From positions 68,026 through 132,025 of the forward strand of contig CADCLV010000003.1 of assembly GCA_902802325.1 (NCBI GenBank): a DNA stretch of 64,000 nucleotides. The letters run 5' to 3'. Under the pieces are notes generated by a model. It saw only the letters and a list, made by a program, of their open reading frames with translations, had not been told where the DNA came from and ran no database searches. Positions 1,967 through 50,579 of the stretch are shown one piece after another. A program made the translations under genes and the position numbers. The stretch's first letter is position 1; every line of letters begins with the position of its first letter. This stretch comes from Oscillospiraceae bacterium (GTDB taxonomy: Bacteria > Bacillota > Clostridia > Saccharofermentanales > Saccharofermentanaceae).

Positions 1967-2265
1967 GCCGACTACCCCAATTCTTCGAATGTTAAATCTA
2001 TTTTATCAGAATAAGAGGAGGCATATGGTGACAATCTTGTAACAGTTACGTATTACAGATTTGTAAACAATTTTCACCCGGATTTTGACTTCGGGAGAAA
2101 AAACGGAAGGAAAAGGAAAAAGCGGGAGGGAATAGAAGATAGCCGGAAATGCCCGAATTTCAGCACTTTGAAACATCTTCGAAAAGTCCGTGTAACACAA
2201 GCGTAACGTTTTGTGTAATGTGCACAAACGGGTGCGCGCGTTCGCGAATTTTGTTTGTAAAAATG

Positions 2266-2293
2266 TTGACAAACTTCTTGACCGTGCTATACT
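2266..2293 (+). promoter_or_regulatory. Sigma-A-type promoter driving the large ncRNA candidate
   Basis: TTGACA (2266-2271), 16-nt spacer, extended -10 TGc-TATACT (2285-2293). Confidence 0.6.
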
Positions 2294-2298
2294 GAAAC

Positions 2299-2957: not shown

Positions 2958-2977
2958 TACGACGAAATCCTATTTGG

Positions 2978-3508
2978 TCAGTGATGCTCGATCTCGGCAA
3001 TGAAGGGGAGGTTTCGTCCGATTTCTCCATTATCCATGCCGTAGCCGATCAGCCAGCTTCTGTCAACTTCGAAACCATAATACTTGACTGGAAGATCGAT
3101 CAGCTGCCTGTCCGGATTATAAAGAAGCGTGCATACCTCTAATGAAGCCGGTTTTCTCGTTTCCAATGTCTGGAGAAGATAGGCAGTGGTAAGGCCTGTG
3201 CGGATGATGTCTTCGACTACGATCACGTGCTTGCCTGTGATGTCGATATCCACATCTTTTGTGATCCTTACGATCCCGGTAGCGCGGGTAGTGTCAGGGA
3301 TGCTGCTGATGCCGATCATGTCGACCATTACGGGCATTTTTGTTGCACGGGCAAGATCTGTCAGAAAGAAAAGAGAACCTTTCAGTACCCCCAGAAGGAG
3401 AAGATCCTGACCTTCGTAATCACGGGCAAGGGTCTTCCCAAGTTCTTTTACCCGGTTTTGCAGCTGCTCCTCGGTAAAAAGTATCTTTTTATACGAAATC
3501 TCTTTCAT
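2978..3508 (-). CDS. hpt: Hypoxanthine phosphoribosyltransferase
   Basis: 176 aa with the PRPP-binding motif VIVVEDIIRTGLT and typical Hpt N- and C-terminal sequence. RBS GGAGG. Confidence 0.9.
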   Translation of the reverse strand: MKEISYKKILFTEEQLQNRVKELGKTLARDYEGQDLLLLGVLKGSLFFLTDLARATKMPVMVDMIGISSIPDTTRATGIVRITKDVDIDITGKHVIVVEDIIRTGLTTAYLLQTLETRKPASLEVCTLLYNPDRQLIDLPVKYYGFEVDRSWLIGYGMDNGEIGRNLPFIAEIEHH

Positions 3509-3520
3509 TTACGGCCTCCG

Positions 3521-4480
3521 TCATTTATCCGCGTTTTCCTCGTCGGCGGGAAATGCACTGCCGCGGAGCCGCTCGGCCAGTTCGAGGAAATCTTTCTTAT
3601 AAACGATCTTTATGTGAATGCCCGGATACAGTTCACGGACTTTCTTCAGCTTGCGGTTCTTTTTATTGACGTATTTCTGGTTCATGGTCGTCAGTTCCAG
3701 ATAGGTGTCAAAACGTGTCAGATAAAAATCCGGACTGAAGGCCAGCGTGACATTTCCTTCGCTGTCCCATTCCACAGGGAAAGTCTTCGGTTCGTATCTC
3801 CACTCGATCTGGTACATATCCAGGATCCGGGCAAATTCCGCCTCCGAAGGATTTTTAAAAACAGGAAGGGATTTCTGGTGGTCCTTGGAACCTTCTTTTT
3901 TCGTTTCGGAGGTGATCCGGGAACGAAGAGAATGCTCTTTTACCGTGGAAAGGATAGCAGCTACGCACTCATCCACAGAGAGAAGACCGGTATTCAGAAC
4001 CAGGTGATAAAGTTCTTCGCTTGAAGAATCTGCGCCGAAAACATGGGATACGAAACGCTTGTGTTTCCGGTCGCGGGAAGCTAAAAGCTCTCTTGCTGCT
4101 TCTTCGGCCAGGTGAAACTGTTTGCAGATCCTGGTAAGACGCACCGCGTCCGGGGCGATGATCCGGACATGAATGGCATTACTGTTATCGGAAAGAAGGA
4201 TCTGAGAGCCGAATCCCAGTAAAATGGCCGAGTCTTTTTCAGACAGCTTAAGGAGCGAGTCGGAAAGAACATCCTTAAAGCTTTTTCCGTCCTTATATTC
4301 TGAAAGATAAAACTTGGCGCTTTCGGCCAGGTGGGAGCGCTGCTCGGCATTGATCTCGGGAAAAAACCGGTCCATCAAAAGATCACGGGTCAAAAGCTCC
4401 CAGCCTAATTTACTGCTTAAGGCGGAGGCTACTTCTTCTCCGAGACTTCCCATCTGTCGGGAGATCGTGATGATCGGCAT
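3521..4480 (-). CDS. Cytidylate kinase-like family protein fused to a C-terminal PD-(D/E)xK-like domain
   Basis: The N-terminus ITISRQMGSLGEEVA is typical of the Cytidylate_kin2 family. The C-terminal roughly 120 aa contains SPDFYL-x8-YLELT. RBS AAGGGGGAAAG. Confidence 0.65.
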   Translation of the reverse strand: MPIITISRQMGSLGEEVASALSSKLGWELLTRDLLMDRFFPEINAEQRSHLAESAKFYLSEYKDGKSFKDVLSDSLLKLSEKDSAILLGFGSQILLSDNSNAIHVRIIAPDAVRLTRICKQFHLAEEAARELLASRDRKHKRFVSHVFGADSSSEELYHLVLNTGLLSVDECVAAILSTVKEHSLRSRITSETKKEGSKDHQKSLPVFKNPSEAEFARILDMYQIEWRYEPKTFPVEWDSEGNVTLAFSPDFYLTRFDTYLELTTMNQKYVNKKNRKLKKVRELYPGIHIKIVYKKDFLELAERLRGSAFPADEENADK

Positions 4481-36310: not shown

Positions 36311-38436
36311 CATCGGAGATCTCGCCCTTAGGCCGTTGTGTTGTTCATTGCTCCCGGTTGCCTTTGTACCGGACACCTTTCGGTGCACAGCCGACGAGAG
36401 GGTATGTGGATCTTTCCATCGACGTTCATGTCAATGTGGATGAGATCGTCCTGTGTTATGCGTATGGTCTGTATTCACTGTCTTATAGTGAACTGCGCCT
36501 TCAAAAATCCGAATCGGTCCCGGACCGCTGGGTAGGCCGTCTGCGCCTTCCCGCGGAGCCGGGTCTGCTTTTTTACTGGTTTTGCCTTAGAAGTTCCCAT
36601 GAGGATATCGAAGCTATCGTGGATCCGAAGTATCACGAGCTTTTATATCGGAAATATGAGGAAAACCGGACTTATCTTTACTATGTGGCGTCATGGGACG
36701 GAAAGGACGGAGAAGGAAAGTTTGCCTTCAGCGCGCCGCGTGTGGGTGTAAATGAAGAGAAGTATCCTCACGCTTTCCAGATCACAGTGTATGAAGAGGG
36801 TTTTACCACTCCGGACTGGATGAAAGGTGCCACCATGTATCAGATCTTCCCGGACCGTTTCTTCCGTGGAAGCGACTATTCTTATGAGAAAATGACCGAG
36901 ACCGGTACATCTCGTCCGGAACGGATCTTTCACGAAGACTGGAATGAGGACGTGGATATCGAAGGAAAGCCGGAGACCGGCTATCTGGCCTGTGACTTTT
37001 ACGGCGGTACATTAAAGGGCATCGCGGAGAAGACGGACTATCTTCAGTCTCTGAATGTGGATGTGGTGTATTTAAATCCGATCTGTGAAGCCCGTTCCAA
37101 TCATCGATATGACACAGCGGACTATATGAATGTTGATCCCATCCTGGGCGGAAAAGACGGCTATAAATCTTTTTCAAAGACTATGCATGATTCCGGTATC
37201 CGATATATTGTGGATGGTGTCTTCAGCCATACCGGCGCAGACAGCCGTTACTTCAATAAGTACGGGCGATACGGGGAAAGCGGCGCATACAGTGCATTTG
37301 CCGACGGAGAAAACAGCCGGTTTGCTTCCTGGTACGCTTTCCACAGAGGGGAGAACGGTGCTGTGGAGTACGACTCCTGGTGGGGATTCCCTGAACTGCC
37401 GAACGTAAAAGAGGATGACCTTTCATACCGTGAATATATCCTTGGTGAAAACGGAGTCATTGCCAGATGGCTACGTGGCGGCGCCAGCGGCGTTCGTCTG
37501 GATGTGTCAGATGAGCTTCCGGATTCTTTCTTGAGGGAAATGAGAAAGACAGTCAAACAGGCCTCGGATAATCAGGGACTGGTGCTGGGAGAAGTCTGGG
37601 AAGAAGCCACAAGTAAGATCAGTTACGGAAATTACCGCGATTTTGCTTTCGGACGCACCCATGACAGCGTGATGGGATATCCTTTCCGGGAAACGCTTCT
37701 TTCTTTCCTGAAAGGGGAGATCGATGCCCGTGTATGGAGCCTGACCATGGAACGCTACAGGGAGAACTTCCCGGATCAGATCTATTACTGCATGATGAAT
37801 CTGGTCTCCAGCCACGATGTGCCTCGGGCGATCACGATGCTGGCCGGCGCTCCTGACCCGGGAGATCGGGCCCTTCAAAAGGATCTGCATCTGGATAAAA
37901 AGGTTCTTGGAAAAGCGTCGGCCCTGATGAAGCTGGCCTTTGCGGTTCAGATCATGTACCCCGGCTGTCCGTGTATCTACTACGGTGACGAGATCGGTAT
38001 GGATGGATATCGGGATCCGTTTAACCGGAGAACCTATCCGTGGGGAAAAGAAGAGGCCTGGCAGAAGGAACTTCTTTCGGATTATCAGAAACTGAGCGGA
38101 CTACGAAAGAATTATCCGGTATTAAAAGGCGGAGATATACGCATTCTTTATGCAAAGGGCGATGCATTGGTGTTTGAGCGCTTTGCTGATGAATCCGGTA
38201 TGGATCATTTTGGAAGACCAATCGAAGGCGCGAAAAAGGTTTTGTGTATATTAAATCGAAGTGATAAAATAAAAATGCAGGTCCGTAGGGACAAGGACAG
38301 GGAGATACAAGTTTCGCTTGAACCGGAGGATTTTTCCGGTGCCGGACAGATAGATATTTCCGAGTTTTCAGACGGCGCCGCATTTTCGGAACAGACGGTG
38401 GGACCGCTTTCCGTGAGTATTATAATTTCCCGGTGA
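36307..38436 (+). CDS. GH13 alpha-glucosidase/amylase family enzyme (neopullulanase/maltogenic-amylase-like)
   Basis: Conserved GH13 regions DVVYLNPI, GVRLDVSDELP, GEVWEE and VSSHDVPR. ATGA overlap with glgA. Confidence 0.8.
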   Translation: MTSEISPLGRCVVHCSRLPLYRTPFGAQPTRGYVDLSIDVHVNVDEIVLCYAYGLYSLSYSELRLQKSESVPDRWVGRLRLPAEPGLLFYWFCLRSSHEDIEAIVDPKYHELLYRKYEENRTYLYYVASWDGKDGEGKFAFSAPRVGVNEEKYPHAFQITVYEEGFTTPDWMKGATMYQIFPDRFFRGSDYSYEKMTETGTSRPERIFHEDWNEDVDIEGKPETGYLACDFYGGTLKGIAEKTDYLQSLNVDVVYLNPICEARSNHRYDTADYMNVDPILGGKDGYKSFSKTMHDSGIRYIVDGVFSHTGADSRYFNKYGRYGESGAYSAFADGENSRFASWYAFHRGENGAVEYDSWWGFPELPNVKEDDLSYREYILGENGVIARWLRGGASGVRLDVSDELPDSFLREMRKTVKQASDNQGLVLGEVWEEATSKISYGNYRDFAFGRTHDSVMGYPFRETLLSFLKGEIDARVWSLTMERYRENFPDQIYYCMMNLVSSHDVPRAITMLAGAPDPGDRALQKDLHLDKKVLGKASALMKLAFAVQIMYPGCPCIYYGDEIGMDGYRDPFNRRTYPWGKEEAWQKELLSDYQKLSGLRKNYPVLKGGDIRILYAKGDALVFERFADESGMDHFGRPIEGAKKVLCILNRSDKIKMQVRRDKDREIQVSLEPEDFSGAGQIDISEFSDGAAFSEQTVGPLSVSIIISR

Positions 38437-38459
38437 GGAACGGGGAGCAGGAGGTATAT

Positions 38460-39563
38460 ATGTCCGATTTTGATGGAAATCAAGAACAGCAGATCATGGC
38501 TGAAATTACCGAGGACGTGACTAATAAAAAGTGCCCGAACTGTGGTGCGACTGTAGTCTTTGATCCGGAATCCGGTGGAATGCTTTGTGAGTTCTGCGGC
38601 TATAAGACAGAACTTCCGAAACCGGATGCAGGAAGTTCGATTTGTGAATTGGATTTTGAATCTGCGACACAGACTGCCAGCTTTGAGTGGGGTGCTCAGA
38701 AGAAGGCTGTAGTTTGTAAGCAGTGCGGTGCGGAAACGATTTATGATGCATTGGAGACTGCTGCGGTTTGTCCGTTCTGCGGATCCACCAGCGTTATGCC
38801 TGCGGCGAGCAATGATTCTATGGCTCCGGGTGCGGTTGTTCCGTTTGCCATATCTAAAGAAAAGGCCGGAGAGAAGTTCACATCCTGGATCAAAGGCAAG
38901 CTCTTCACTCCGTCTAAGGCGAAGAAGAGCGCAAGACCGGAATCTTTCCAGGGCGTATATCTTCCGTACTGGACCTATGATGCCCAGACCACATCTTCTT
39001 TCTCTGCCCGTGCCGGTTACGAAAAGCGCGTAAAGAGAGGCGACCAGTATGTAACGGAGGTTACCTGGCGTCCGGTAAGCGGTGTATATCAGGAATTCAT
39101 CGATGATGAGACCGTTATGGCTTCCAAGAAATCCGAGAACTCCATCGTGAAGAAGTGTGAGCCTTTCGATCTTACTAAGCTGGTTCCGTATTCTCCGCAA
39201 GTTGTGGCAGGCTTCATTGCCGAGCGTTACTCGGTAGGTCTGAAGGAAGGCTGGGATATGGCTCAGGTTTCGATCAAGAAGAAACTGCAGAGCAACATTA
39301 ATCAGTACATCCGCAGAAATTGGAGATGTGACCGTGTTGATTCTCTGAGATTCTCTACCTTATATAGTAATATTACATATAAATACTTACTTGTTCCGGT
39401 ATGGATCTCGTCTTTCAAGTTCAACGATAAGGTCTACCAGTTTGTTGTTAACGGACAGACCGGTAAGGTGGGAGGAAGTGCACCGATTTCCATTCTTCGT
39501 GTACTGGCAGCTATCGGTATTGGTATTCTGGTAATCGCACTGCTGTACAATTTGACTCACTAA
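38460..39563 (+). CDS. Double zinc-ribbon protein with a C-terminal TM anchor (hypothetical)
   Basis: CPNCG...CEFCG and CKQCG...CPFCG ribbons. C-terminal helix ILRVLAAIGIGILVIALLY. The ATG at 38460 follows GGAGCAGGAGG. Confidence 0.65.
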   Translation: MSDFDGNQEQQIMAEITEDVTNKKCPNCGATVVFDPESGGMLCEFCGYKTELPKPDAGSSICELDFESATQTASFEWGAQKKAVVCKQCGAETIYDALETAAVCPFCGSTSVMPAASNDSMAPGAVVPFAISKEKAGEKFTSWIKGKLFTPSKAKKSARPESFQGVYLPYWTYDAQTTSSFSARAGYEKRVKRGDQYVTEVTWRPVSGVYQEFIDDETVMASKKSENSIVKKCEPFDLTKLVPYSPQVVAGFIAERYSVGLKEGWDMAQVSIKKKLQSNINQYIRRNWRCDRVDSLRFSTLYSNITYKYLLVPVWISSFKFNDKVYQFVVNGQTGKVGGSAPISILRVLAAIGIGILVIALLYNLTH

Positions 39564-39788: not shown

Positions 39789-42700
39789 ATGACAGACGAG
39801 AAGACACAGCTTCAGGCTACCGGTGGCCGTCGTTTTGGCCGCTGGGTTCGGACATTATCTTGCACACTCGTTATTGCTTTCCTTGGCGCACAAGGTATCG
39901 CCGCACTTCCTAATGGAGTATTTGAACAGCACTTGTCTCGTGACGCAGGTTCCGGATTAAATCCGCAGAACCCGTTTAACTATGTGCTTTTCACATCAGG
40001 CGATCTGGAGATCGGTGGCGGTGAAGGCCATCACTCTACTGGCGCTATGGCAGTTGGTGGTAATGCTACATTTGGCAGTTATTCATTTGTTTCAGATAAC
40101 GCTGCACCGGGTGAGAGAGGATTATCTCAGCTGGTCGTAGGCGGAGAATTGAACTTTGGTAACCTCGATGGACTTCGTGGTAACCTGGAAGTTTCCTCTG
40201 CTTCTAATATCCATGGTGAGCAATATTCCTTCACCGATGAGAAATATCATCTGGTGGAAGGTGTTACCGTCAACTTCTCAGGCGTTATGGATAACATGAT
40301 TGCCAAAGCGGATAATGCTAACAGCCGTGCACAGTCTTCCTCCAACGCGATCCTGAACACTCAGGGCGGTGGAGACTGGCTCGAAGTGGAAGCAAAGACT
40401 CCGGATGGATTTAATAAAGATGAAGATACTCTTATCTTCAACCTGCCGGCCGGTACCGATAAGCTTTTTGTACCGGAAGGCGTAAACGTGATCATTAACG
40501 TTCGCGGCGATTCCATCAACGAGATCCCGCAGCTGATGTATGGTTCTTTCTCCAGCTCCAGCCGTCCGAACGATGCCGGTGACGAACGTGATGCTCACAT
40601 TGTATGGAACTGTGCAGAAGCATACAGCGTTTACATGCAGGACAACCTGGCTCTGCATGGTGCTCTTCTTGCTCCGCATGCTTATGTAAAGAAACTGGGT
40701 GGTAACTCCAACGGTGCCATCATCTGTGCTTCGATCTACTGCACATCTGAGTTCCATCGTGTACAGAATGTAGTTAAGTTCACGACTCCGACGCCGAAGC
40801 CGACTGACACACCGACACCGACTCCGACTAACACACCTACTCCGACAAATACACCTACACCTACTCCGACGAATACACCTACTCCGACACCGACGAATAC
40901 GCCGACTCCGACGGAGACCCCGACGCCGACTCCGACCAACACTCCGACTCCGACGCCGACAAACACACCTACACCTACAAATACACCTACACCTACAAAT
41001 ACACCTACTCCGACGCCGACCAATACTCCGACGCCTACACCTACAAATACACCAACTCCGAAGCCGACTGCTACTCCGGTACCTACCAATACACCGGTTC
41101 CGACAGCGACTCCGATCCCGACCGTGACAGCGACTCCGGTTCCGACTAATACACCTACTCCGACACCGACTCCTCTTGCAAAGGTAACAGTCAGCAAGCA
41201 GGACATCAATGGTACCGGTGAACTTGAAGGCGCTGTTCTGAAGATCAGCCGTGATTCTGCCGGTAAGCAGATCGTAAAAGATGCTGTAACAGGTAAGGAA
41301 CTGACTTGGACATCCGGTAAGACAGCTAAGCAGGTAAGCCTCCTGGATGGCGTGTACTATCTGACTGAGATTACCGCTCCGAATGGCTACGAAGTATCTG
41401 AAGTGGTTTCTTTCAAGATCACTGACGGTAAAGTATCCAAGGTTGGTAATGCCGGTGATGTAAACGGCAACACCGTTATTATGTATGATGCTCCGAATCC
41501 GACTGTAAAGATCTCTAAGGTAGATCTCGGTTCCGGAAATGAAATCGCAGGTGCGAAAATCGTTCTCAGCGACGTAAACGGTAAGACAGTAGAGTCCTGG
41601 ACATCTTCCACATCTGCTCATGAAGTGAAGATTCCTTCCGGTACATATTTCCTGAAGGAGACTGCTGCTCCGGATGGATATCAGAAGGTTGAGTCTACAT
41701 TTAAGTTTACTGTAGACAAGAATGGAAAGGTTACATTGGATCGTGCGACAACCAATGGTGACTGCGAGTATGTAAATGGCAAAATCGTGATCAAGAACGC
41801 TCTGCTGCCTACACCTACTCCGACAAATACACCTACACCGACACCGACCAATACACCTACACCTACACCTACAAACACACCTACACCGACACCGACGAAT
41901 ACGCCGACTCCGGTTCCGACGAATACGCCGACTCCGACAAGCACACCTACACCGACGCCGACAAGTACGCCGACACCGACTCCGAAGCCGACTGCTACTC
42001 CGATCCCGACAGCAACTCCGGTTCCGACAGTAACTCCGTTGCCGACAAATACACCGACTCCGGTTCCGACGAATACTCCTACACCGACGCCTCTGACGAA
42101 AGTGACGGTCAGCAAGCAGGATATCAATGGTACGGGCGAACTCGAGGGGGCTGTACTGAAGGTAAGCAGCGATGCTGACGGAAGAAATATCGTTTTGGAT
42201 GCGGTAACAGGTGAGAAGCTCACTTGGACATCTGGTAAGACTGCTAAGCAGGTTAGCCTCCTCAATGGTGTCTACTACCTGACCGAGACCACAGCTCCGG
42301 ACGGCTACGAAGTTTCTGAAGTAGTTTCCTTCCGTGTAGTTGACGGTAAGGTCGTAAAGGTTGGAAATGCCGGCGATGTAAACGGAAACACCGTAGTTAT
42401 GTTTGATGCACCGAACCCGACCGTGAAGATCGCAAAAGTTGATCTTGGTAACGGAAATGAGATTCCGGGCGCTTCGATCGAACTGAAGGATGCCAAGGGT
42501 ACAGTTATTGATAGCTGGGTATCTACTGATGAAGCTCACGAAGTGAAGATTCCTGCCGGTACTTATACTCTGAAGGAAGTTGTTGCTCCGAAGGGTTATG
42601 TAAAGGTTGATTCTGAATTCACGTTTACTGTAGATGTAAACGGCGATGTTGTTCTCGACAGTGCTGTATCTACAGGTGAGTGCGAGTATGTAAACGGTCA

Positions 42701-43466
42701 GATCGTGATCAAGAATGCAGCAAACCCGTTCGTTAAGATCTCCAAGGTTGACCTTGGTAACGGTAACGAGATCCCGGGTGCTACGATCGAACTGAGTGAT
42801 GCAAATGGCAATACGATCGAGACGTGGGTATCTGCTGATACCGCTCATGAGGTGATCCTGCCTGCCGGTACATATACTCTGAAAGAGCAGGCTGCACCGA
42901 ATGGTTACCAGAAGGTTGATTCCGAGTTCACATTTACAGTAGATGCTGATGGTAAGGTTGTTCTTGACAGTGCTGTATCTACCGGTGAGTGTGAGTATGT
43001 AGACGGTAAGATCGTCATTAAGAATGCTCCGATCTTCACACCTACACCGTCGCCGATCCCGACAGCTACTCCGACACCTATGCCGACAGCTACTCCGATC
43101 CCGACAGCAACACCGGTTCCGACCGCGACACCTGTTCCGGATGACGTAATCGGAAGACGTAAGGGTCAGATGGATTCCATCACTTCTACACCGACTCCGA
43201 TCCCGACAGCAACACCGGTTCCGACCGAGACTCCGGTTCCGGCAGATCCGACAGCAACACCGGTTCCGACTGAAGTTCCGGTTGAGCCGACAGCAACACC
43301 TGTTCCGCCGGTAGAAGAAGCTGTACTGGGTGAGTCCCGTATCCCGAAGACTGGTGATACCGGTTCTTCCGTGAAACTTCTGGCTGGTCTGTTCTTCTTG
43401 GCAGCATCTGCAGCGACAATCACTGTAGTTGTTTCCCGTAAGAAAGAAGAAGAAGAGAATCTGTAA
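39789..43466 (+). CDS. Sortase-anchored cell-surface protein: choice-of-anchor-A-like N-domain, P/T-rich linkers and five SpaA/Cna-B-type (prealbumin-fold) domains
   Basis: Signal peptide. [32 protein letters not shown] resembles choice-of-anchor A. Repeated [25 protein letters not shown] and [15 protein letters not shown] domains. C-terminal IPKTG followed by a hydrophobic helix and RKKEEE tail. Confidence 0.85.
40783..41175 (+). repeat. Coding tandem repeat, (T-P-T-P-T-N/P)n linker 1
   Basis: Degenerate ACnCCnAC(n) periodicity that translates to [12 protein letters not shown]... Confidence 0.9.
41176..43036 (+). repeat. Segmental duplication inside the surface-protein gene: domain pair A-B (41176-41806), linker 2 (41807-42092), then A-B-B (42093-43036)
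   Basis: The translated copies align almost residue for residue, for example [20 protein letters not shown] and [29 protein letters not shown]. Confidence 0.85.
43037..43310 (+). repeat. Coding P/T/A/V-rich linker 3
   Basis: Reiterations of [14 protein letters not shown]. Confidence 0.8.
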
Positions 43467-43486
43467 TAACTAGGATTAAAGCAGGA

Positions 43487-43520
43487 AGGCCGCTTTCGTA
43501 AGAAGGCGGCCTTTTTGTTA
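43487..43520 (+). terminator. Intrinsic terminator after the surface-protein gene
   Basis: AAGGCCGC (43487-43494) pairs with GCGGCCTT (43507-43514), followed by TTTTG. Confidence 0.8.
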
Positions 43521-43581
43521 TTTGGTGAAAAATGCGATAGAATAAAAAAGAATATGCTGAGTCAGAAGGGGTACGACCAAC

Positions 43582-46500
43582 ATGATCGATTATTATAACG
43601 CGTTTATTTCATATAAGCATGCGCCTGTGGATAATCAGGTTGCTGCTCATATTCAGGCCGCTTTAGAGCATTTCCATATTCCCGGAAAGATCAGGAAAAA
43701 GACCGGAAAGAAGCAGATCCAGCGTGTGTTCCGTGACAAGGACGAATTGCCGATCACAAGCGACCTTAGTGATACGATTTCCCAGGCACTGGAAAACTCC
43801 GACTATCTGATCGTTATCTGTTCAACAAGTACATGTAAGTCTGAGTGGGTAAAAAGGGAGATCCAGTATTTTCTTCGAAACCATACTCATGACCAGATCC
43901 TTACTGTCCTTGCCGAGGGAGAACCGGAAGAGGTGATCCCGGAAGAACTTCGTACAGAAGAAAGACTTCTTCCAAATTCAGATGGATCTGCATCGTATGT
44001 ACGAGTTCCGATTGAACCGCTCTCCTGCGATTACCGTATGCCTTTCCGAAAGGCGGATAAAGAGGAACTGCCTCGTCTTGCTGCGGCTTTGATCGGATGT
44101 TCATACGACGAACTGATGAACCGCAGAAGACAATATCAGATGCGGCGTATCGGAATACTGGCGTTGATCCTTACTGTTTTGGCACTGGGATTTAGTTTCT
44201 ATACGATAAATACAGCCAGAAAAATCGACAAGAATTACCAGGCTTCATTGCGAAATCAATCGCTTTATCTGGCCAATGAATCTCAAAAACTACTTCAAGA
44301 TGAGCGCCGGATCGAGGCGATCCAGGTAGCACTGGAAGCCTTGCCGAACAATCGGATGGACAGACCGGTAACTGCTGAAGCAATCAAAGCTTTAACAGAT
44401 GCGACACTGGCATATCAACCTGTATCTGGTAACAGTATCTTTGCGGTATGGAATTATCGCATGTCATCTACTATCCGGAAGATGCAGGTTTCGCCCGAGG
44501 GAGATTGTTTTGCTTGTATAGATGATACCGGGAGTTTGAGTGTCTGGGAGACAGAAACTCATGGATTACTTTTCGAATATCATCTTTCAGATTATAAAAT
44601 TCTCGGATTTGCATTCATCGATGAGAATACTCTTGTTCTTTGGGGAGGACGGGAGTTTTATTGCTTTGAACTAGATACGAATGAGAGAATCTGGAGTCTG
44701 AAACTTGATTCCAAGATCATAAATGACAGCTATGCACTTTCAGAAGACAGGAAAAGTCTGTATTTACCGACGAATACGGGTAAATTATTAAAAATATCTA
44801 CTGATGAAGGTAAAGTGATCAATGAGTGGGAGATTTCACAATATTATGATTACAATGTCATATTATACAATAAAGTAACGTTATCTCCGGATGAGAAGAA
44901 TCTTCTTTTAGCTTATGAAACATTGGATTGTGCATATGTGGCTATTTTCGAACTAGAGTCCGGACTATTTCGTGATAACCTGTTATCGAATCCGAGGCTG
45001 ATAGATGTGACCTGGACAGATCCGGAGCATTTTCTGGTTGCTTCCTATGATGATTCAGATTCTATGGCGTATGAAGTAGGTTCAGCCAGGATCGTTAAGG
45101 ACAATTTTATTCAGATCGACTGTTTGTCACAAGCTGATTTCAGTACTGTATGGAGCAATCAGGCACAGTATAATGATATTCGTATTCGATCCGGATTCCT
45201 TGATCTTCCGGGATTTGATCAGACTGCGTTTTTTTGCTCGAATCGTATAATGAAATTCAAAAATTCCGATGGACAAATAGCGTGTTCTTATAATCTTACT
45301 ACCAGTCTGATCGATATTTCTGATCGTGATCAAGATGGATTACCAATCGGTATATCTACTGATGGAGATATTATTACGCTTACCCCGAATGTAGGAGAGA
45401 CAGCGTTTGCATACACCCCGACATTCACGGACTTACTGGATATGGCCTTAGTATATGAAGGTGTGTATGTTCATAGAGCCGGTAGTAACGAAGTAATCTT
45501 CTATGAAGCTTATGTAGGTGATGAGGATTGGGAGAAAATTGAAGAGATTCCGTCTGTTCCGACGTCAAACACTTGTATTAGTGATGACTATATGGTGGTA
45601 GAGGTGGGAAATTCTCAAGCTATAGAATTGTTTGCTTACGATGTCAATTCGAATGAACCGATTTGGAATGAAGAAATTAAAGACATGAAGAATACCTGTT
45701 GTTTGCTTGGCATATATGACGATGTGCTGTATCTTGTTTCCAAAGATATGGACAGTAATACGAATCTTTTGGGAATCAATATGGAAGATGGGAGCATAGA
45801 AGTAAAAGAAAACTTTACGGGGCAAAGGTCATATGAGTATCATGTTGCTTCATTGACGGATGAGAAATTGGCCTATTTATATTCTTCTTCAACAAAGAAC
45901 GATGGATGTCTGAAACTACGGGATCTGGATACAGGTAAAACGAAGAAGTTTGATTTGCTTTTAGATTCTTATCGTCCAAACTTAGCACCGGTTTATTTCT
46001 CCCAGGCTGATGCCATCTATTATTCTGATGAAATAGAAGGAGACTACATTATCGATGTGGAAGAAAATGAATTTCATCATATAGAGTTTCCTGCTTCGTG
46101 GTCGGAGACGGCGTTCGTAAATATGGATCCGAGCGGGGAGTTCTTCCTGGTCGGAAATAGTAACTCTGTGCTGGTATTGGATCGGGAGGGTGAGACTGTA
46201 TTTGAAGTGGGGCATATGGAAATGCGGCCTATTGGTTCTGATGTGTATTCAACAGGAAAGATTAAGGATGAACTTTTAGTTGTTTATTCAGATGGGGCAT
46301 TGTGCCGGTATGATTTAAAAACAGGAGCCCTTCTTGGAAAAATGCAAACATCAGCATCAATGGACGAATCAAATGATTTTTTTACGGTATCTTTTCAGTT
46401 CGATACGGAACGATCAACACTGTTTTTGCAACTGATGAGTGAAACATATGTGATCGATCTGAATAGCTGGGTGGAAGTGGCGACTGTCGGAAACAGTATC

Positions 46501-46671
46501 GGTTATTGTCCGGTCAACGACGAATTCTTCAGTTATTCAATTGCATCTTCAAAAGAAATCAGTATGGGATATTTCCGCCACTATACGCTTGAGGAGCTGA
46601 TTGAGAAGGGAAAGAAGATCACTCAGAATACAGAACTAACGCCGGAGCAGAGATCTGAATACGGAATCTGA
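43582..46671 (+). CDS. TIR domain - single TM helix - large beta-propeller-like extracytoplasmic domain protein
   Basis: N-terminal YNAFISYKH...DYLIVICSTSTCKSEWVKREIQYF (TIR_2-like, with Glu93 in the S.W...E motif). RRRQYQMRR followed by the helix IGILALILTVLALGFSFYTI (aa 189-209). About 820 aa follow with WD40/PQQ-like repeat character (ERIWSL, EPIWNE). Confidence 0.8.
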   Translation: MIDYYNAFISYKHAPVDNQVAAHIQAALEHFHIPGKIRKKTGKKQIQRVFRDKDELPITSDLSDTISQALENSDYLIVICSTSTCKSEWVKREIQYFLRNHTHDQILTVLAEGEPEEVIPEELRTEERLLPNSDGSASYVRVPIEPLSCDYRMPFRKADKEELPRLAAALIGCSYDELMNRRRQYQMRRIGILALILTVLALGFSFYTINTARKIDKNYQASLRNQSLYLANESQKLLQDERRIEAIQVALEALPNNRMDRPVTAEAIKALTDATLAYQPVSGNSIFAVWNYRMSSTIRKMQVSPEGDCFACIDDTGSLSVWETETHGLLFEYHLSDYKILGFAFIDENTLVLWGGREFYCFELDTNERIWSLKLDSKIINDSYALSEDRKSLYLPTNTGKLLKISTDEGKVINEWEISQYYDYNVILYNKVTLSPDEKNLLLAYETLDCAYVAIFELESGLFRDNLLSNPRLIDVTWTDPEHFLVASYDDSDSMAYEVGSARIVKDNFIQIDCLSQADFSTVWSNQAQYNDIRIRSGFLDLPGFDQTAFFCSNRIMKFKNSDGQIACSYNLTTSLIDISDRDQDGLPIGISTDGDIITLTPNVGETAFAYTPTFTDLLDMALVYEGVYVHRAGSNEVIFYEAYVGDEDWEKIEEIPSVPTSNTCISDDYMVVEVGNSQAIELFAYDVNSNEPIWNEEIKDMKNTCCLLGIYDDVLYLVSKDMDSNTNLLGINMEDGSIEVKENFTGQRSYEYHVASLTDEKLAYLYSSSTKNDGCLKLRDLDTGKTKKFDLLLDSYRPNLAPVYFSQADAIYYSDEIEGDYIIDVEENEFHHIEFPASWSETAFVNMDPSGEFFLVGNSNSVLVLDREGETVFEVGHMEMRPIGSDVYSTGKIKDELLVVYSDGALCRYDLKTGALLGKMQTSASMDESNDFFTVSFQFDTERSTLFLQLMSETYVIDLNSWVEVATVGNSIGYCPVNDEFFSYSIASSKEISMGYFRHYTLEELIEKGKKITQNTELTPEQRSEYGI

Positions 46672-46688
46672 TTTGTTTAAAGAATGTT

Positions 46689-48173
46689 TTACTTGGCTTC
46701 TTCGTAAAGCTGATCGAAAAGACCACCCTTAATGATGTAGATATCATGGGGGTCTCCTTCACGTACGGCAATATAGTCGCCCGGACGGCCTAAGTAATAC
46801 TTTTCTTCATCCCAAACAGTGAAGAGCTTGATGTGGTTTTCAAGCGGACGGGCATAAATGCGTCCGCCGCCATTACTGATCACGGCTTTCGCGAATTCCA
46901 TTACGTTCTTTTTTGATCCATTGGACAGATCCGTGACACTCGGAGCATATTCGAATGTACGGTCGAAAGGCTTGTTGAGCTCTTTATAACTATCCAGAAG
47001 CTTTTTACGGTTGATGGGATATACTTCGCCTTCGATACCGATCATGAGATAACTGTCTTCTTCTACAATGGTGTTGATATCTCCTTCCAGAGTACGGACT
47101 TCGACTCTCGTTCCCGGATCGAACAGATCGGTCATATGGACAGCACCCACTTCCTGCGGAAGTTTCTGGTAGAGTTTCATGTTGGAAGTATCCAGCACGG
47201 TTTCTTTCGAGTAGAGGATCGTAAACATGTCAAAATACTCTTCCATACGCTTCTGGAAGATCGTAGCGGGATCGGCGTCAAGTTTTTCCGGACGCAGAGA
47301 ACCGCCTGCTTTAAAGATATGTCCGCCGCCTCCGCCATAGCCTTCAGCCAAAAAGGCTGCCAGTTCATTGGCATGTACCTCTTTGACACAGCTTCTGACA
47401 GAAAACTTTACTTCAAGGTTACTGACATAGTAAGCAAGGCAAACATCGACACTGTCTGTTTCCAGAGAAAAGTCAGAGATCACGCCCAGAATGTTCGGAT
47501 CGCAGGGCTCCGCCTGAAGGATCAGATAGTGATGGGAATCATAGTACTGATAATCCAGTATCGCTTTTCCGGAGATCTTCAGTTCTCCAAGGGAAATATT
47601 TGCATTACACATACGGGTGATCAATGTGCGCTGCACGGAAGTCAGGTTATCCAGCATATCCCGGTCAAGCGGGTGGGAAACTTCGGAAAGACGGTTTGTA
47701 TCTGTGTAAAGGCCATAATAGAGGATCGTAGAAAGATCTTTATCATCATTCGGATTGAGTCCTTCCTGACGGATCAGATTCCAGACAACAGTGGCACAGC
47801 TTCCGAGATTTCCTCGGACTTCAGATAACTCCGGAAGAGGAGAAGTGACCTGATGATGGTCGATCACGGCGATGGTATCCGCTTGGGTTTCGGTTACATT
47901 ACGCTGTCCGTACTGGCAATCCACATTGATCAGAAGACCGTTCACTTTCTGAAGATCCGGTGCATATTCGATCGGGATATGAAGTTCATTTACCATGATC
48001 TTCAGATTGCTTTTGGTGATCTCATTATGTCCGCGGTAAATGAACCTGGCTTTCTTTCCCATCTTCTGGAAATACCACATCAAAGCGGCGCCGGAGGCTA
48101 AAGCGTCGGCATCCGGATTGTCGTGACACTGAATAACGATTTCTGGATAGGAAAGAAGTTCTGAAAGTTTCAT
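46689..48173 (-). CDS. DHH/DHHA1 family phosphoesterase (NrnA-like) with a roughly 170-aa C-terminal extension
   Basis: HDNPDADALAS, the DHH motif (VIDHHQ) and DHHA1 GGGGH. I place the start at MKLSELL (48173) because it follows AAGGAGAA. Confidence 0.8.
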   Translation of the reverse strand: MKLSELLSYPEIVIQCHDNPDADALASGAALMWYFQKMGKKARFIYRGHNEITKSNLKIMVNELHIPIEYAPDLQKVNGLLINVDCQYGQRNVTETQADTIAVIDHHQVTSPLPELSEVRGNLGSCATVVWNLIRQEGLNPNDDKDLSTILYYGLYTDTNRLSEVSHPLDRDMLDNLTSVQRTLITRMCNANISLGELKISGKAILDYQYYDSHHYLILQAEPCDPNILGVISDFSLETDSVDVCLAYYVSNLEVKFSVRSCVKEVHANELAAFLAEGYGGGGGHIFKAGGSLRPEKLDADPATIFQKRMEEYFDMFTILYSKETVLDTSNMKLYQKLPQEVGAVHMTDLFDPGTRVEVRTLEGDINTIVEEDSYLMIGIEGEVYPINRKKLLDSYKELNKPFDRTFEYAPSVTDLSNGSKKNVMEFAKAVISNGGGRIYARPLENHIKLFTVWDEEKYYLGRPGDYIAVREGDPHDIYIIKGGLFDQLYEEAK

Positions 48174-48272
48174 GCATGATTCTCCTTGCATTTCGTTCCA
48201 ATTCATTGTACCATTCTTTTCCGCACTTAACAAAAAAGTATGATGTATTCCGTACCAAGTCAAAAATCACTA

Positions 48273-48551: not shown

Positions 48552-49706
48552 ATGAAGAAAAATGTTTCGAAAGTGGCATGTCTGGTTTTGTCTCTTTCTA
48601 TGGTCGCTTCTATGGCGGCTTGTAAGAAAAGTGAGAAGAAGTCGTCCGGATGTGTCGAGGCGGCAGAGAATGTTCTCAGCTCGATCATCCCGCTGAATGA
48701 AAAGAAGATCAAGAAGCTGGCTAAGGGTTCTGATTTTGATGAGGAAATCATCGATAAGCTTAAAGTCCATGGACAGAGTGAGATGGTTGAGGCGGTCATG
48801 GAAAAGGCCACCTTTGAGGTCGATTCGGATAGTGTAGAGGAAAAGAAGAAGAAGGCTTCCTGTTCGGCAACGGTTACAATGCCGGATTATGAGGATGCTA
48901 TGGATGAGTCGGACGGCGATCCGGATGATTTCATCGATGCGATCGAAGGACAGAAGGAGAAGAATTATATCTCCGTAGATCTGGAACTGGAATTTGAAGT
49001 GGATGACGATGAATATGTCCTGACAAATGGCGATGAGGTTTTTGATACCCTCTTTGATCCGCTTTTTGAAGCAATCGGTTCCTATCAGGTAGATAATCCG
49101 GATCCGACAGATGATACGGTTGCGGATACCACACCGGCAGACACAACTCCTGCGGATACAACACCGGCAAATACGACACCAGCGGACACGACACCGGCAA
49201 ATACGACACCAGCGGACACGACACCGGCGGATACTACCCCGGCAGATACCACTCCGGCAACATCCTCTCAGCAGGCATTGCCTTTGCCGTTCAAGTCTTT
49301 TAAGAAAGCTGATCTTAATGAGAGCATTTTCGACAATGCAATCAAGGCTGTAGATCCGAATGCTTCGGTCGATGATTATCCGCTTGACGAAATTGCGGAT
49401 TATAAGGCTACGAAGTATAAGATCGCTACCAGCCCCAACAACTGGAACGTCATGTATACCTATTATGAGTTTGAATCTGCGGATGGTGCCCATAAGTACT
49501 TTGAGGATACATGCGCTCTCCTGCAGTCGATTTCTTCCGGCTACGGTCTTGAAGCGGATTACGGTTATCTGATTTATGAAAGTGAGTCTATGGATATTAT
49601 CTACTACTTCTCCGGCAATGCCATGACAGTAGTCGTAACTTTCGCTCTGGATCAGACTGCGTTTGATCAGATCACTACCTTTGTAAATGCACTGGGTATT
49701 GCCTGA
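48552..49706 (+). CDS. Lipoprotein of unknown function with a (TTPAD/N)n repeat
   Basis: Signal peptide with the lipobox MAAC, an acidic body and nine pentapeptide repeats. RBS AAGGAGG. Confidence 0.7.
   Translation: MKKNVSKVACLVLSLSMVASMAACKKSEKKSSGCVEAAENVLSSIIPLNEKKIKKLAKGSDFDEEIIDKLKVHGQSEMVEAVMEKATFEVDSDSVEEKKKKASCSATVTMPDYEDAMDESDGDPDDFIDAIEGQKEKNYISVDLELEFEVDDDEYVLTNGDEVFDTLFDPLFEAIGSYQVDNPDPTDDTVADTTPADTTPADTTPANTTPADTTPANTTPADTTPADTTPADTTPATSSQQALPLPFKSFKKADLNESIFDNAIKAVDPNASVDDYPLDEIADYKATKYKIATSPNNWNVMYTYYEFESADGAHKYFEDTCALLQSISSGYGLEADYGYLIYESESMDIIYYFSGNAMTVVVTFALDQTAFDQITTFVNALGIA
49122..49259 (+). repeat. 15-nt coding tandem repeat (A-D-T-T-P), about 9 units including an exact 30-nt duplication
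   Basis: GCGGATACCACACCG-type units. CAAATACGACACCAGCGGACACGACACCGG occurs twice in tandem. Confidence 0.9.
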
Positions 49707-49796: not shown

Positions 49797-50579
49797 ATGA
49801 AGGTTACCGTTCTTTCGGAAAATACCAGTCACAGTGGATTTGCTTCTGAACATGGATTGTGCTTGTTTATCGAGACGCAAAAACATAAGATCCTCTTCGA
49901 TTTCGGCGCCTCTTCCTTGTTCGTCAAAAATGCTGAGAGGCTGGGCGTAGATCTGGGAGAAGTGGATGTGGCATTTCTGTCCCACGGTCATTATGATCAC
50001 GGAGGCGGACTGGAAGCTTTTCTGGAGATCAATAAAATTGCCAACATCTATATGCAGGAACAGGTTTTTGAACCACATTATAATGCCAGAAACGAATATA
50101 TCGGTCTGGATGTGACGCTGGACGGACATCCGCGATTCATCAAGGTCAGAGAAGATACGGTGATCGATGGAGAACTTTCTTTTGTCACGATGAAGAAAGG
50201 GAAGAAGCCGGTGGAGACCCAGGGCCTTAAGGTCAAGAGGGGAAAGTTTATGGAGAAAGAGGATTTCGTTCATGAGATGTATCTTCAGATCCATGAGGGG
50301 TACAAGAATTATCTGATCAGCGGCTGCTCCCATAAGGGGCTGATCAATCTGATCTACCAGTTCCGTTTTGATGCCTTTGTCGGCGGTTTTCACTTCATGA
50401 AGTATGATGTGCTTTGGGATGAAGACCGGTTAATAGAAGCGGCAGAGGCAATCAAAAATGCACGGGCGGAGTTTTATACCTGCCATTGTACCGGATCCGA
50501 GCAACTGCAGTTTCTGAAAGACGAAGTGGGAGATAAACTTCACGGAATCTCCTGCGGGGATTCTGTATATATCGAATAA
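49797..50579 (+). CDS. MBL-fold metallo-hydrolase
   Basis: HxHxDH motif (SHGHYDHGGG) and a later CSHKG. RBS AAAGGAG. Confidence 0.8.
   Translation: MKVTVLSENTSHSGFASEHGLCLFIETQKHKILFDFGASSLFVKNAERLGVDLGEVDVAFLSHGHYDHGGGLEAFLEINKIANIYMQEQVFEPHYNARNEYIGLDVTLDGHPRFIKVREDTVIDGELSFVTMKKGKKPVETQGLKVKRGKFMEKEDFVHEMYLQIHEGYKNYLISGCSHKGLINLIYQFRFDAFVGGFHFMKYDVLWDEDRLIEAAEAIKNARAEFYTCHCTGSEQLQFLKDEVGDKLHGISCGDSVYIE

Follow-up and report, generated by a model that had tools for sequence, protein, structure and literature searches.

A predicted membrane-spanning TIR protein with a double-propeller ectodomain and its conserved DHH/DHHA1 partner gene in rumen Clostridia

The window under analysis is a 64,000-nucleotide stretch of an Oscillospiraceae bacterium contig. 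It carries, at positions 43582-46671 of the forward strand, the open reading frame that an earlier sequence-only reading had described as a receptor-like TIR protein: 1029 aa with an ATG start. The frame is preceded by a GAAGGGG ribosome-binding site read from the sequence (43566-43572, +) and by a weak promoter-like site (TTGTTA-17-TAGAAT, 43515-43543, +; 9/12 in a consensus scan). The terminator claimed upstream is present at 43480-43519 (+), where it ends the adhesin gene and separates it from the TIR gene: an 18-bp hairpin with a GUAA loop runs into a U-run, UUUUUGUUAUUU, with a folding energy of -29.6 kcal/mol and a z-score of -7.2 against shuffles. The upstream neighbor is the expected sortase-anchored adhesin; its sorting signal is IPKTG, and it has five SpaA domains. 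Its adjacency is incidental, as it does not occupy that position in relatives. A functional link between the TIR protein and the adhesin was considered and rejected: two small genes take its place in the related locus L005, and it is absent elsewhere. Downstream, the gene of a 494-aa DHH/DHHA1 phosphoesterase (46689-48173, -), assigned by Pfam, motifs and an AlphaFold model, is convergent with the TIR gene, their stop codons lying 17 nt apart. It has a weak promoter-like site of its own (TTGTTA-17-TACAAT with a TG before it, 48205-48233, -; 9/12 in the consensus scan) and, since the two genes converge in the window, they are not co-transcribed. The TIR gene had been called monocistronic, but it does not stand alone: its conserved partner is the convergent DHH/DHHA1 gene, which the earlier reading had passed over.

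The TIR frame is a real gene, far beyond chance: other contigs encode an identical protein, and the homologue search scored over 1400 sequences (lengths 1012-1041 aa), the best 120 at E <= 5e-191. This large uncharacterized family of about 1000-aa proteins is found in rumen Clostridia, is abundant in rumen Lachnospiraceae and their relatives and has a member in Fusobacterium; paralogues occur within genomes. NCBIfam holds no dedicated model for the protein, which gives only sub-threshold matches to FxsC_Nterm, BamB and a retron TIR, and a full-text literature search returned no paper on the TIR-propeller family or on its linkage to DHH genes. The chain begins with the TIR_2 domain. After it come one hydrophobic helix (aa 189-209), a conserved helical stalk and a region of beta-strands about 720 aa long. 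The AlphaFold model of all 1029 aa has a pLDDT of 89.5 and a pTM of 0.76.

The TIR domain, predicted to be cytoplasmic (aa 4-120; 43591-43941, +), was rightly recognized as TIR_2: Pfam TIR_2 (PF13676) scores 45.7 bits over aa 8-120, above its gathering score of 28. ThsB_TIR (PF08937) matches with 38.4 bits (cut-off 21.2), and a family profile searched against the PDB finds plant, bacterial and SARM1 TIR domains with E-values down to 6.6e-7. The mean column conservation of the domain is 0.81. In the TIR domains of SARM1, plants and bacteria, a glutamate of the alpha-C helix (W-x-x-x-E) is needed for catalysis. The residue singled out earlier for this role, Glu93, is encoded by GAG at 43858-43860 (+) and lies, as the putative catalytic residue, in S87-x-W89-x-x-x-E93. 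Ser87, Trp89 and Glu93 are invariant across 117 homologues, and Glu93 is kept in 17 of 17 sequences of an alignment (A6) that includes eight distant DHH-linked relatives, the divergent type of locus L129 among them. It aligns with the W-x-x-x-E glutamate of AtTIR, L6 and 7UXR, and is the counterpart of the glutamate in W-C-L-x-E-L and W-T-E-Y-E-L of solved TIR domains. The TIR domains of Toll-like receptors (TLRs), which are non-enzymatic, carry a conserved glutamate in the alignment too. The cytoplasmic segment that follows (aa 121-188; 43942-44145, +; column conservation 0.71) has a beta-hairpin, EPLSCDYR, ELPRLAxALIGCSYDELMNRRRQY and a basic juxtamembrane stretch, and its motifs recur in distant DHH-linked homologues.

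A single transmembrane helix is predicted at aa 189-209 (44146-44208, +). On the Kyte-Doolittle scale the 19-mer maximum lies at aa 190-209 with 2.19, the sole segment above 1.6, and the next reaches 1.11; the basic stretch RRRQYQMRR noted earlier sits immediately N-terminal of it. Among homologues the hydrophobicity of the helix is kept and its sequence is not. Over 117 sequences the N-terminal flank averages 5.0 Lys plus Arg against 3.0 for the C-terminal flank, and the positive-inside bias appears in 90% of them. The protein has no N-terminal signal sequence, and in the AlphaFold model the membrane segment is part of a continuous helix (aa 175-239). From the one helix, the charge bias and this modeled continuity we infer a bitopic layout, with the TIR domain inside and the propellers outside, and to that extent the topology first proposed is borne out as a prediction. 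The segment after the helix is predicted to be an extracytoplasmic helical stalk (aa 210-280; 44209-44421, +), with modeled helices at 175-239, 243-252 and 265-274, the motif RNQSxYLANES...RIxAxQLALxALP...RPVTxEA..ALTDATLAY and a pairwise identity of 62%.

The ectodomain (aa 281-1000; 44422-46581, +) is identified as a double beta-propeller by the model, Foldseek and Pfam PQQ_2. The PQQ_2 match (aa 299-419, 44.6 bits vs 27.6) agrees with the WD40/PQQ-like character deduced from the peptides ERIWSL, EPIWNE and GKLLKISTDEGKVINEW, all of which are found in the protein. AlphaFold builds 64 beta-strands, the number needed for 16 four-stranded blades, and the ectodomain is read as two eight-bladed propellers. 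The best Foldseek matches are tandem WD40 proteins, aligned over 700-850 columns. Over the whole model the TM-scores stay at a low 0.2-0.36, which reflects matches that span the propellers only and a differing inter-domain geometry. A DxDxDG-type loop, SDRDQDG (aa 581-586), is near-invariant and speaks for the predicted topology, and the ectodomain-coding part has a GC content of 40% vs 46-53%. The protein ends in a helical tail (aa 1001-1029; 46582-46668, +; modeled helices 1003-1014 and 1021-1026) with the motif GYFRHYTxxELIxKxxxIL.G.ELTxExxSxYGI, which is present in distant family members, in an 820-aa paralogue and in the Fusobacterium member. Profiles, conservation, hydropathy, charge bias and the AlphaFold model thus all back the architecture inferred at the outset: TIR inside, one helix, propellers outside.

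The two sides of the predicted membrane helix evolve at different rates. Homologues share 70% pairwise identity over the cytoplasmic part and 31% over the ectodomain; dN/dS is 0-0.09 for the cytoplasmic TIR part and 0.12-0.35 for the ectodomain, with dS being similar. The cytoplasmic part is under strong purifying selection and the ectodomain is faster-evolving, a contrast that looks receptor-like. The family appears to be vertically inherited and is length-conserved across hundreds of species; in relatives its loci are flanked by glycogen synthesis genes, tRNA synthetases, gyrB, ftsH and metH. Phage-borne homologues were searched for and none were found. The plasmid database yielded a shorter paralogue on a Butyrivibrio megaplasmid and the Fusobacterium family member, as well as matches confined to TIR and membrane helix in rhizobia and a few other genera.

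The convergent neighbor scores 48.7 bits for Pfam DHH and 30.5 bits for DHHA1. All 58 sequences compared keep the motifs HDNPDAD, D86, DHH (106-108, alignment A2), D159 and GGGGGH (281-286) without change. The AlphaFold model (pLDDT 90.1) retrieves GdpP, TmPDE, DhhP, NrnA and Rv2837c as best Foldseek matches, at E about 1e-16 and with TM-scores of up to 0.71 on the target; its modeled fold is closest to phosphodiesterases acting on c-di-AMP, pApA and nanoRNA. With NrnA/Pde2, DhhP, TmPDE, Rv2837c and the catalytic domain of GdpP the protein shares the fold and the invariant catalytic motifs. Unlike these stand-alone enzymes it is remote in sequence (best E = 2e-6 against PDB sequences; no NCBIfam equivalog model comes anywhere near its cut-off), carries an extra beta domain of about 178 aa and is genetically linked, in some proteins fused, to TIR domains. 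This C-terminal all-beta domain (46692-47225, -) has no Pfam match even at E <= 10 and no PDB match; its mean column identity is 70%, and the same domain is fused to GGDEF in Ruminococcus proteins. PGDYG (PF14083) was rejected as its identity, the likeness being limited to a G-x-GDY/W motif.

The DHH gene is a conserved partner of the TIR gene: of 77 species-level loci that could be evaluated, 66 have the two side by side, 43 of these convergent and 23 in the order DHH>TIR, where the genes are -1 to 73 nt apart. Looked up from the DHH side, a TIR gene was adjacent in five of five cases, with different outer flanks every time. Around distant DHH relatives (35-52% identity), 24 of 38 fully evaluable loci have a diverged TIR gene with a membrane helix within 5 kb, nearly always directly adjacent and with a WD40, PQQ or FN3-like ectodomain. 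At the other 14 no TIR gene lies within 5 kb, and a family-specific TIR HMM uncovered no hidden TIR in TIR-less DHH loci, L129 excepted, where a different TIR type was spotted by eye and confirmed by Pfam. From these 14 loci it follows that the DHH enzyme also works alone, and it may be a housekeeping nanoRNase. Conversely, some TIR paralogues and the Fusobacterium member lack an adjacent DHH gene. The metagenome scan was queried with a six-sequence alignment. A single-chain TIR_2-DHH-DHHA1 fusion exists in eight full-length copies from separate assemblies; its GGGH motif is degenerate, which is more in keeping with binding than with hydrolysis.

How does this pair compare with known TIR systems? 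To our knowledge, characterized bacterial TIR domains are either soluble cytoplasmic anti-phage components or secreted virulence factors. Bacterial TIR NADases convert NAD+ into ADPR or cADPR isomers, and this is the chemistry to be expected here. Thoeris ThsB, AbTir, TcpB/BtpA and BtTir have in common with our protein a TIR_2/ThsB_TIR-type domain and the W-x-x-x-E glutamate; they are, however, soluble and built of one or two domains, whereas here the domain is predicted to be membrane-tethered and joined to an ectodomain region of about 820 aa. The contrast with soluble ThsB drawn by the sequence-only reading holds: the protein is five times the length of ThsB and is predicted to be membrane-bound, and PADLOC ThsB models match it weakly (E = 2.6e-5 to 0.017). 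ThsB works with ThsA (SIR2/SLOG or Macro/TM), while the conserved partner here is a DHH/DHHA1 phosphoesterase; no ThsA effector lies nearby, the neighbors being the adhesin and the DHH gene, and housekeeping genes in relatives. Run on the TIR and DHH proteins and three neighbors, PADLOC returned weak ThsB-like, PDC or LmuA matches and no system.

Metazoan Toll-like and IL-1 receptors are single-pass proteins with a repeat-built outer sensor and a cytoplasmic TIR domain, a layout predicted here as well, with the polarity reversed as had been remarked. TLRs are type I proteins with a C-terminal TIR; in our protein the TIR is N-terminal, ahead of the membrane helix, and the predicted topology is type II. 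Their ectodomains are LRR or Ig, as opposed to a PQQ/WD40-like double propeller. There is no sign that the two architectures as a whole share an ancestor. We consider the TIR domain here most likely an enzyme rather than an adaptor scaffold. Bacterial receptor kinases with extracellular propellers, such as M. tuberculosis PknD, have the layout predicted here: an N-terminal cytoplasmic catalytic domain, one membrane helix and an extracytoplasmic propeller. Activation of such receptor kinases is thought to be ligand-driven dimerization; PknD differs in its Ser/Thr kinase output and its single six-bladed NHL propeller. SARM1 and dSarm are TIR NADases governed by appended regulatory domains and oligomerization, as we propose here, with control residing in cytoplasmic ARM and SAM domains in SARM1 as against the ectodomain here. 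dSarm is reported to act jointly with Raw, a distinct enzyme that hydrolyzes cADPR (PMC13455253), in a producer-plus-hydrolase logic like that of the proposed TIR-DHH pair. Raw is described there as a TIR-fold hydrolase; the partner here is a DHH enzyme.

Taken together, envelope sensing coupled to NAD-derived signaling or NAD depletion, as first suggested, is plausible. Our preferred reading, held tentatively at somewhat less than even chances, is a two-gene signaling module in which a receptor enzyme senses the outside and cleaves NAD+, and the DHH protein turns the product over. The 1029-aa protein would be inserted with its N-terminus inside, the TIR domain and juxtamembrane segment in the cytoplasm and one helix through the membrane; the stalk and two eight-bladed propellers would project into the cell-wall region of the bacterium, a Gram-positive from the rumen. 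An extracytoplasmic ligand on the fast-evolving propellers would alter the oligomeric state or helix packing, bringing the TIR domains together. TIR NADases need TIR-TIR assembly to form their active site. Glu93 would then cleave NAD+ into nicotinamide and an ADP-ribose-type or cyclic ADP-ribose-type nucleotide, which the cytoplasmic DHH/DHHA1 enzyme would hydrolyze, ending the signal and sparing the cell basal TIR activity. Dedicated phosphodiesterases are similarly paired with cyclic-dinucleotide synthases, and DHH/DHHA1 enzymes of the NrnA/GdpP/DhhP type cut phosphodiester bonds in dinucleotides; we know of no documented activity of such enzymes on ADP-ribose derivatives. Points counted against the receptor-enzyme model are the glutamate in non-enzymatic TLR domains, the TIR-less DHH loci, the DHH-less TIR paralogues, the convergent genes, the dinucleotide substrates of known DHH enzymes and the degenerate GGGH of the fusion. 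A broader version, a transmembrane second-messenger pathway of anaerobic gut and rumen bacteria in which Toll-like receptor enzymes make an NAD-derived nucleotide that the DHH protein reads or erases, is possible but doubtful. Candidate cues for such a pathway are wall, polysaccharide, neighbor-cell or phage signals.

The same architecture could serve a DHH protein that receives the signal rather than terminating it. The TIR product would bind its C-terminal beta domain or DHHA1 site and switch the phosphoesterase on or off, changing the pools of nanoRNA, pApA, c-di-AMP or pAp. The high conservation of the beta domain (70% mean column identity), its recurrence on a GGDEF output domain in Ruminococcus, as sensor domains do, and the degenerate GGGH of the fusion all suit an effector, as do the fold nearest to c-di-AMP, pApA and nanoRNA enzymes and the TIR-less members, which suggest an autonomous activity that TIR could modulate. 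However, the C-terminal domain matches no ligand-binding fold in Pfam or the PDB, and the catalytic motifs, all invariant in the TIR-linked clade, are compatible with either role. The evidence suits substrate and regulator alike, and we regard the effector role as unlikely. We give an equally low probability to an anti-phage or abortive-infection sensor, in which the propellers would respond to phage adsorption or injection or to damage of the envelope, and NAD+ depletion by the TIR domain would halt growth, in a Thoeris-like logic without ThsA and with the DHH enzyme as safety antidote. Such a sensor would account for the ThsB_TIR score of 38.4 bits and the weak PADLOC ThsB matches, the fast ectodomain (dN/dS up to 0.35, identity 31%) with its lower coding GC (40% vs 46-53%) and the paralogues within genomes; a toxic enzyme tightly linked to a neutralizing one also resembles toxin-immunity pairs. 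However, neither protein matches a PADLOC system model at a meaningful score, the surroundings contain no effector gene, whether SIR2/SLOG, Macro or another, and consist of housekeeping genes rather than defence islands, phage-borne copies were not found, and the family looks vertical and length-conserved over hundreds of species. For a vertically conserved family in housekeeping contexts, physiological signaling fits at least as well as phage defence.

Least probable, and in our view very unlikely, is a non-enzymatic envelope protein whose TIR domain serves assembly only, as in TLR adaptors, with structural or scaffolding propellers of the BamB or YxaL type and a DHH neighbor kept by co-regulation or history. 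TLR domains do carry the same glutamate without NADase activity, PQQ_2/BamB-like propellers act as scaffolds in other bacteria, and the genes converge in the window under separate promoter-like sites. Adjacency nevertheless persists over several gene orders, unrelated flanks and DHH identities of 35-52%, the covalent TIR-DHH fusion is recurrent, and S-x-W-x-x-x-E is strictly invariant in a TIR part with a dN/dS of 0-0.09.

For the preferred two-gene module, the linkage and fusion predict a producer-hydrolase pair for an NAD-derived nucleotide, and give a testable role to a large uncharacterized DHH subfamily and its beta domain. The pair points to an undescribed route by which outside signals may become NAD-derived messages. 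If this is true, the family, which would join a catalytically intact TIR domain to an extracytoplasmic sensor, would give bacteria their first case of a TIR output governed directly from outside; animal TLRs already have the outside-sensor/TIR layout, and here the output would be enzymatic. It would also bring TIR chemistry into routine physiological signaling, beyond abortive-infection immunity. The family occurs in cultured strains, among them Eubacterium ruminantium ATCC 17233 and a number of Butyrivibrio isolates, so experiments are feasible, and these would bear on rumen microbial ecology.

The gene at 43582-46671 (+), which had been read from the sequence alone as encoding a receptor-like TIR protein, is a genuine open reading frame of 1029 aa, and the factual statements made about it all proved correct on checking. 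The codon of Glu93 (43858-43860) is GAG, the basic stretch RRRQYQMRR directly precedes the hydrophobic segment, and the adhesin gene upstream ends with a strong hairpin (43480-43519, -29.6 kcal/mol, z = -7.2), the claimed terminator; after this hairpin come a site that weakly resembles a promoter and the ribosome-binding sequence GAAGGGG. The Pfam model TIR_2 matches aa 8-120 with 45.7 bits (gathering score 28) and ThsB_TIR matches the protein with 38.4 bits. Outside the TIR domain, PQQ_2 matches aa 299-419 with 44.6 bits (gathering score 27.6), and WD40-type propeller models produce many further matches, all of them sub-threshold.

To model the structure we supplied AlphaFold2 with an alignment of 117 homologues. 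The resulting model is confident (mean pLDDT 89.5, pTM 0.76): a TIR-like beta/alpha alternation extends to about aa 120, followed as far as aa 171 by a beta-hairpin and helices, then by an unbroken single helix that holds the hydrophobic segment (aa 175-239) and two short helices. The 64 beta-strands that come next (aa 286-999) make up 16 four-stranded blades, sufficient for two eight-bladed propellers, and two helices close the chain. The top Foldseek matches in the PDB are the tandem-propeller proteins Utp21, Pwp2, EML-type and Apaf-1, aligned over 700-850 columns with E ~1e-19 to 1e-21; the match is confined to the propellers, which keeps the TM-scores low.

The single transmembrane (TM) helix claimed earlier holds up as a lone Kyte-Doolittle maximum at aa 190-209 (2.19), the next one reaching at most 1.11. 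Across the 117 sequences its hydrophobicity is kept (mean 2.04) despite variable sequence, and lysine plus arginine average 5.0 on the N-terminal flank versus 3.0 on the C-terminal flank, the N-terminal flank being the richer in 90%. Taken together, the hydrophobic helix, the charge bias of its flanks and the lack of a signal peptide on the TIR domain predict a cytoplasmic position for this domain and an extracytoplasmic one for about 820 aa. A loop of the form DxDxDG, SDRDxDGxP, is near-invariant in the same alignment (D581, D583, G586); calcium sites of extracellular propellers typically have this form.

The sequence suggests that the TIR domain is catalytic. None of the 117 homologues departs from S87, W89 or E93, and a profile of the TIR region built with distant relatives included (17 sequences) matches the solved TIR domains of AtTIR (E = 6.6e-7), L6, the bacterial 7UXR protein, TcpB and ROQ1, as well as SARM1, TIR-1, Cat1 and AbTIR. 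E93 aligns on the Glu of the W-C-L-x-E-L or W-T-E-Y-E-L motif, the catalytic residue of NAD+-cleaving TIRs. TLR2 likewise retains the aligned Glu, and the residue is therefore necessary, not sufficient, for activity.

The protein is no orphan, being a member of a large family. A protein search returned more than 1400 matches, named in the databases just 'TIR domain-containing protein'; nearly all of the best 120 are full-length (1012-1041 aa), with 75-78% identity in two close relatives and 33-43% in the others. In a one-genome-per-species collection, about 500 stretches code for relatives. The sources of the best 80 are metagenome-assembled genomes from the rumen of buffalo, yak, sheep, goat and roe deer, along with cultured strains, among them Eubacterium ruminantium ATCC 17233, Butyrivibrio spp. 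such as INlla18, Ruminococcaceae bacterium YRB3002 and the Lachnospiraceae bacteria C6A11, AC2031 and P6B14. A search of phage genomes found no copies of the family. Fusobacterium vincentii encodes a member of 1018 aa with the same N- and C-terminal motifs (locus L175, 5962-9018 (+)); as this organism is a diderm, the ectodomain would there be periplasmic. Shorter paralogues of 814-820 aa are also found. One of them, an 820-aa TIR-TM protein (locus L058, 7235-9697 (-)), has the same stalk and C-terminal motifs with a shorter ectodomain, and a similar 814-aa protein is carried by the Butyrivibrio fibrisolvens plasmid pNP243 (locus L174, 5980-8424).

Pairwise identity within the family is very uneven by region: 70% in the cytoplasmic part, 62% in the stalk and 31% in the propellers. 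Ten pairs of moderately close loci give a dN/dS of 0-0.09 in the cytoplasmic part versus 0.12-0.35 in the ectodomain; between the window and locus L009, dS is about 0.5 in both parts alike. A constrained output domain joined to a diversifying sensor is the pattern expected of a receptor. The ectodomain-coding DNA (44209-46671) has a GC content of 40.1% and a GC3 of 37.5%, the TIR-coding DNA 46.1% GC and the neighbouring genes 46-53%. For one close pair of loci (L020/L021), dS differs threefold between the cytoplasmic and ectodomain parts, a hint that the sensor region may have recombined or been exchanged as a cassette. The TIR-family reading frame is interrupted in L009 (855 aa) and split in L068 and L088. 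Either pseudogenes or errors of metagenome assembly may account for this.

Left out of the sequence-only reading was a partner gene at 46689-48173 (-), which converges on the TIR gene, encodes a 494-aa DHH/DHHA1 protein and is conserved beside the TIR family. The two stop codons are 17 nt apart with no terminator between them (46669-46691), and the transcripts necessarily overlap at their 3' ends, with possible coupling of the genes by antisense or transcriptional interference; in relatives the convergent gap is often 1-30 nt, and at two loci (L005, L089) the genes overlap. In the first four divergent homologues examined the outer flanks all differ and the DHH gene is adjacent in every case. 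We then surveyed the best 80 of the ~500 species-level loci: the DHH gene is convergent downstream in 43 (gaps 1-477 nt) and directly upstream on the same strand, as an operon, in 23 (gaps -1 to 73 nt), while 14 are without it, three of which are too short for judgement, giving adjacency in 66 of the 77 evaluable loci. On the tree of TIR proteins, loci with the same-strand order fall into one large clade and into separate branches besides, and the adjacency has therefore survived rearrangements. Some TIR paralogues have no adjacent DHH gene; the 820-aa paralogue of L058 lies two genes from a 1041-aa family member without one, and in F. vincentii a 608-aa membrane protein follows the TIR-family gene in its place.

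Viewed from the DHH side, the TIR gene is adjacent in five of five loci, with coding regions overlapping by 1-4 nt in two, and the family reaches as far as clusters of 30-49% identity, whose members retain the full architecture. In a sample of 80 metagenomic loci with distant DHH homologues (35-52% identity to the window protein, nine closer at 57-72%), a TIR gene lies within 5 kb in 44, a count that includes two cut-off matches and locus L129; of the 38 that extend 3.3 kb or more to each side, 24 carry a TIR gene and 14 have none within 5 kb. DHH followed by TIR is the usual order here (gaps 6-250 nt), the reverse or a convergent order being found in some. These distant TIR partners have in common with the window protein only the TIR domain, TM helix, stalk and C-terminal tail, and for ectodomains they have diverged propellers of the WD40 or PQQ type. 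At L129 the product of the gene directly upstream of the DHH homologue (1601-3832 (+)) is another type of TIR_2 protein, 743 aa long, whose TM helix lies near aa 251 and which includes an FN3-like region. On the DHH tree, TIR-linked and TIR-less members interleave in the distant branches, and the clade at 56% identity or more is TIR-linked throughout. Finally, a cluster of 14 proteins includes eight full-length copies (674-699 aa) from separate assemblies that carry TIR_2 (aa 3-117) N-terminal to DHH, DHHA1 and the C-terminal domain in a single chain; the soluble fusions P0304 and P0401 contain a TIR of the L129 type. Several gene orders, deep divergence and covalent fusion are strong evidence that TIR and DHH share a function.

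In the DHH protein itself, the DHH motifs and the DHHA1 GGGGGH are all invariant across 58 homologues. The structures nearest to its AlphaFold model (pLDDT 90.1) are the GdpP catalytic domain, T. maritima PDE, Borrelia DhhP, S. aureus NrnA/Pde2 and Rv2837c, phosphodiesterases to which its sequence relationship is remote and whose substrates are pApA, c-di-AMP, nanoRNA or pAp. The C-terminal ~178 aa (aa 317-494) make up an all-beta domain for which Pfam and the PDB offer no relative; it recurs in Ruminococcus proteins, followed by GGDEF (P0367/P0405, in which the DHH-like region is degenerate). Two members of the DHH family, P0251 and P0257, have an extra PGDYG (PF14083) or HAD phosphatase domain. 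PADLOC has no model for the DHH protein.

To explain the observed architecture, conservation, linkage and fusion we chose a receptor-enzyme model, all four steps of which we infer: an extracytoplasmic ligand would act on the propellers, a change of oligomeric state would be relayed along the unbroken TM helix and by the conserved segments next to the membrane, the TIR domains would come together and cleave NAD+ via E93, and the nucleotide product would be cleared by the DHH enzyme. In a close variant the DHH protein would instead be an effector under regulation, sensing through its C-terminal domain, a reading favoured by the GGDEF fusion of that domain and by a degenerate GGGH motif in the TIR-DHH fusion. 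The invariance of the catalytic motif and the existence of the fusion are hard to reconcile with a purely structural role of the TIR protein.

As for what the receptor-enzyme pair may be for, the flanking housekeeping genes, an apparently vertical inheritance and the lack of any known defence partner speak for physiological signalling. The rapid evolution and low GC content of the ectodomain, together with the paralogues, make the sensing of phages or competitors a live alternative.

The system is no member of Thoeris, since a ThsA-like gene is absent here and the TIR protein is membrane-bound. Nor is the architecture homologous to that of Toll-like receptors, which have the opposite polarity and an LRR ectodomain. 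The layout is that of PknD-type propeller-bearing receptor kinases, with TIR where the kinase stands. Second-messenger systems include producer-hydrolase pairs, for example dSarm with the cADPR hydrolase Raw according to the abstract of PMC13455253; we propose the same logic, with the DHH enzyme as the hydrolase. A search of the available literature library found no paper on the TIR-protein family or the TIR-DHH link. Relative to known TIR NADase signalling, the receptor-like architecture and the DHH partner would be new.

The cell-wall adhesin upstream (39789-43466 (+), 1225 aa) combines a pAdhesive_15 head with five SpaA (prealbumin-like) domains, carries the sorting signal IPKTG and has long linkers rich in Thr and Pro, with TPTPTN repeats; we rejected it as a functional neighbour and consider it unrelated because its adjacency is not conserved in relatives. 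Further upstream, a 376-aa protein (38433-39563 (+)), which has a pair of TFIIB-type zinc ribbons and a TM helix at its C-terminus, is encoded 3' of the glycogen operon both in the window and in L005 (4524-5624; TIR identity 41%), and gives a weak PADLOC PDC-S64 match (E = 8.5e-5). Beyond the DHH gene lie two genes, neither conserved beside the TIR-DHH pair: one encodes a 384-aa lipoprotein-like protein with an (A/P)DTTP tandem repeat (48552-49706 (+)), for which a family search gave no match, and the other a 260-aa metallo-beta-lactamase-fold protein (49797-50579 (+)) that weakly resembles Apyc1 and LmuA-type models.
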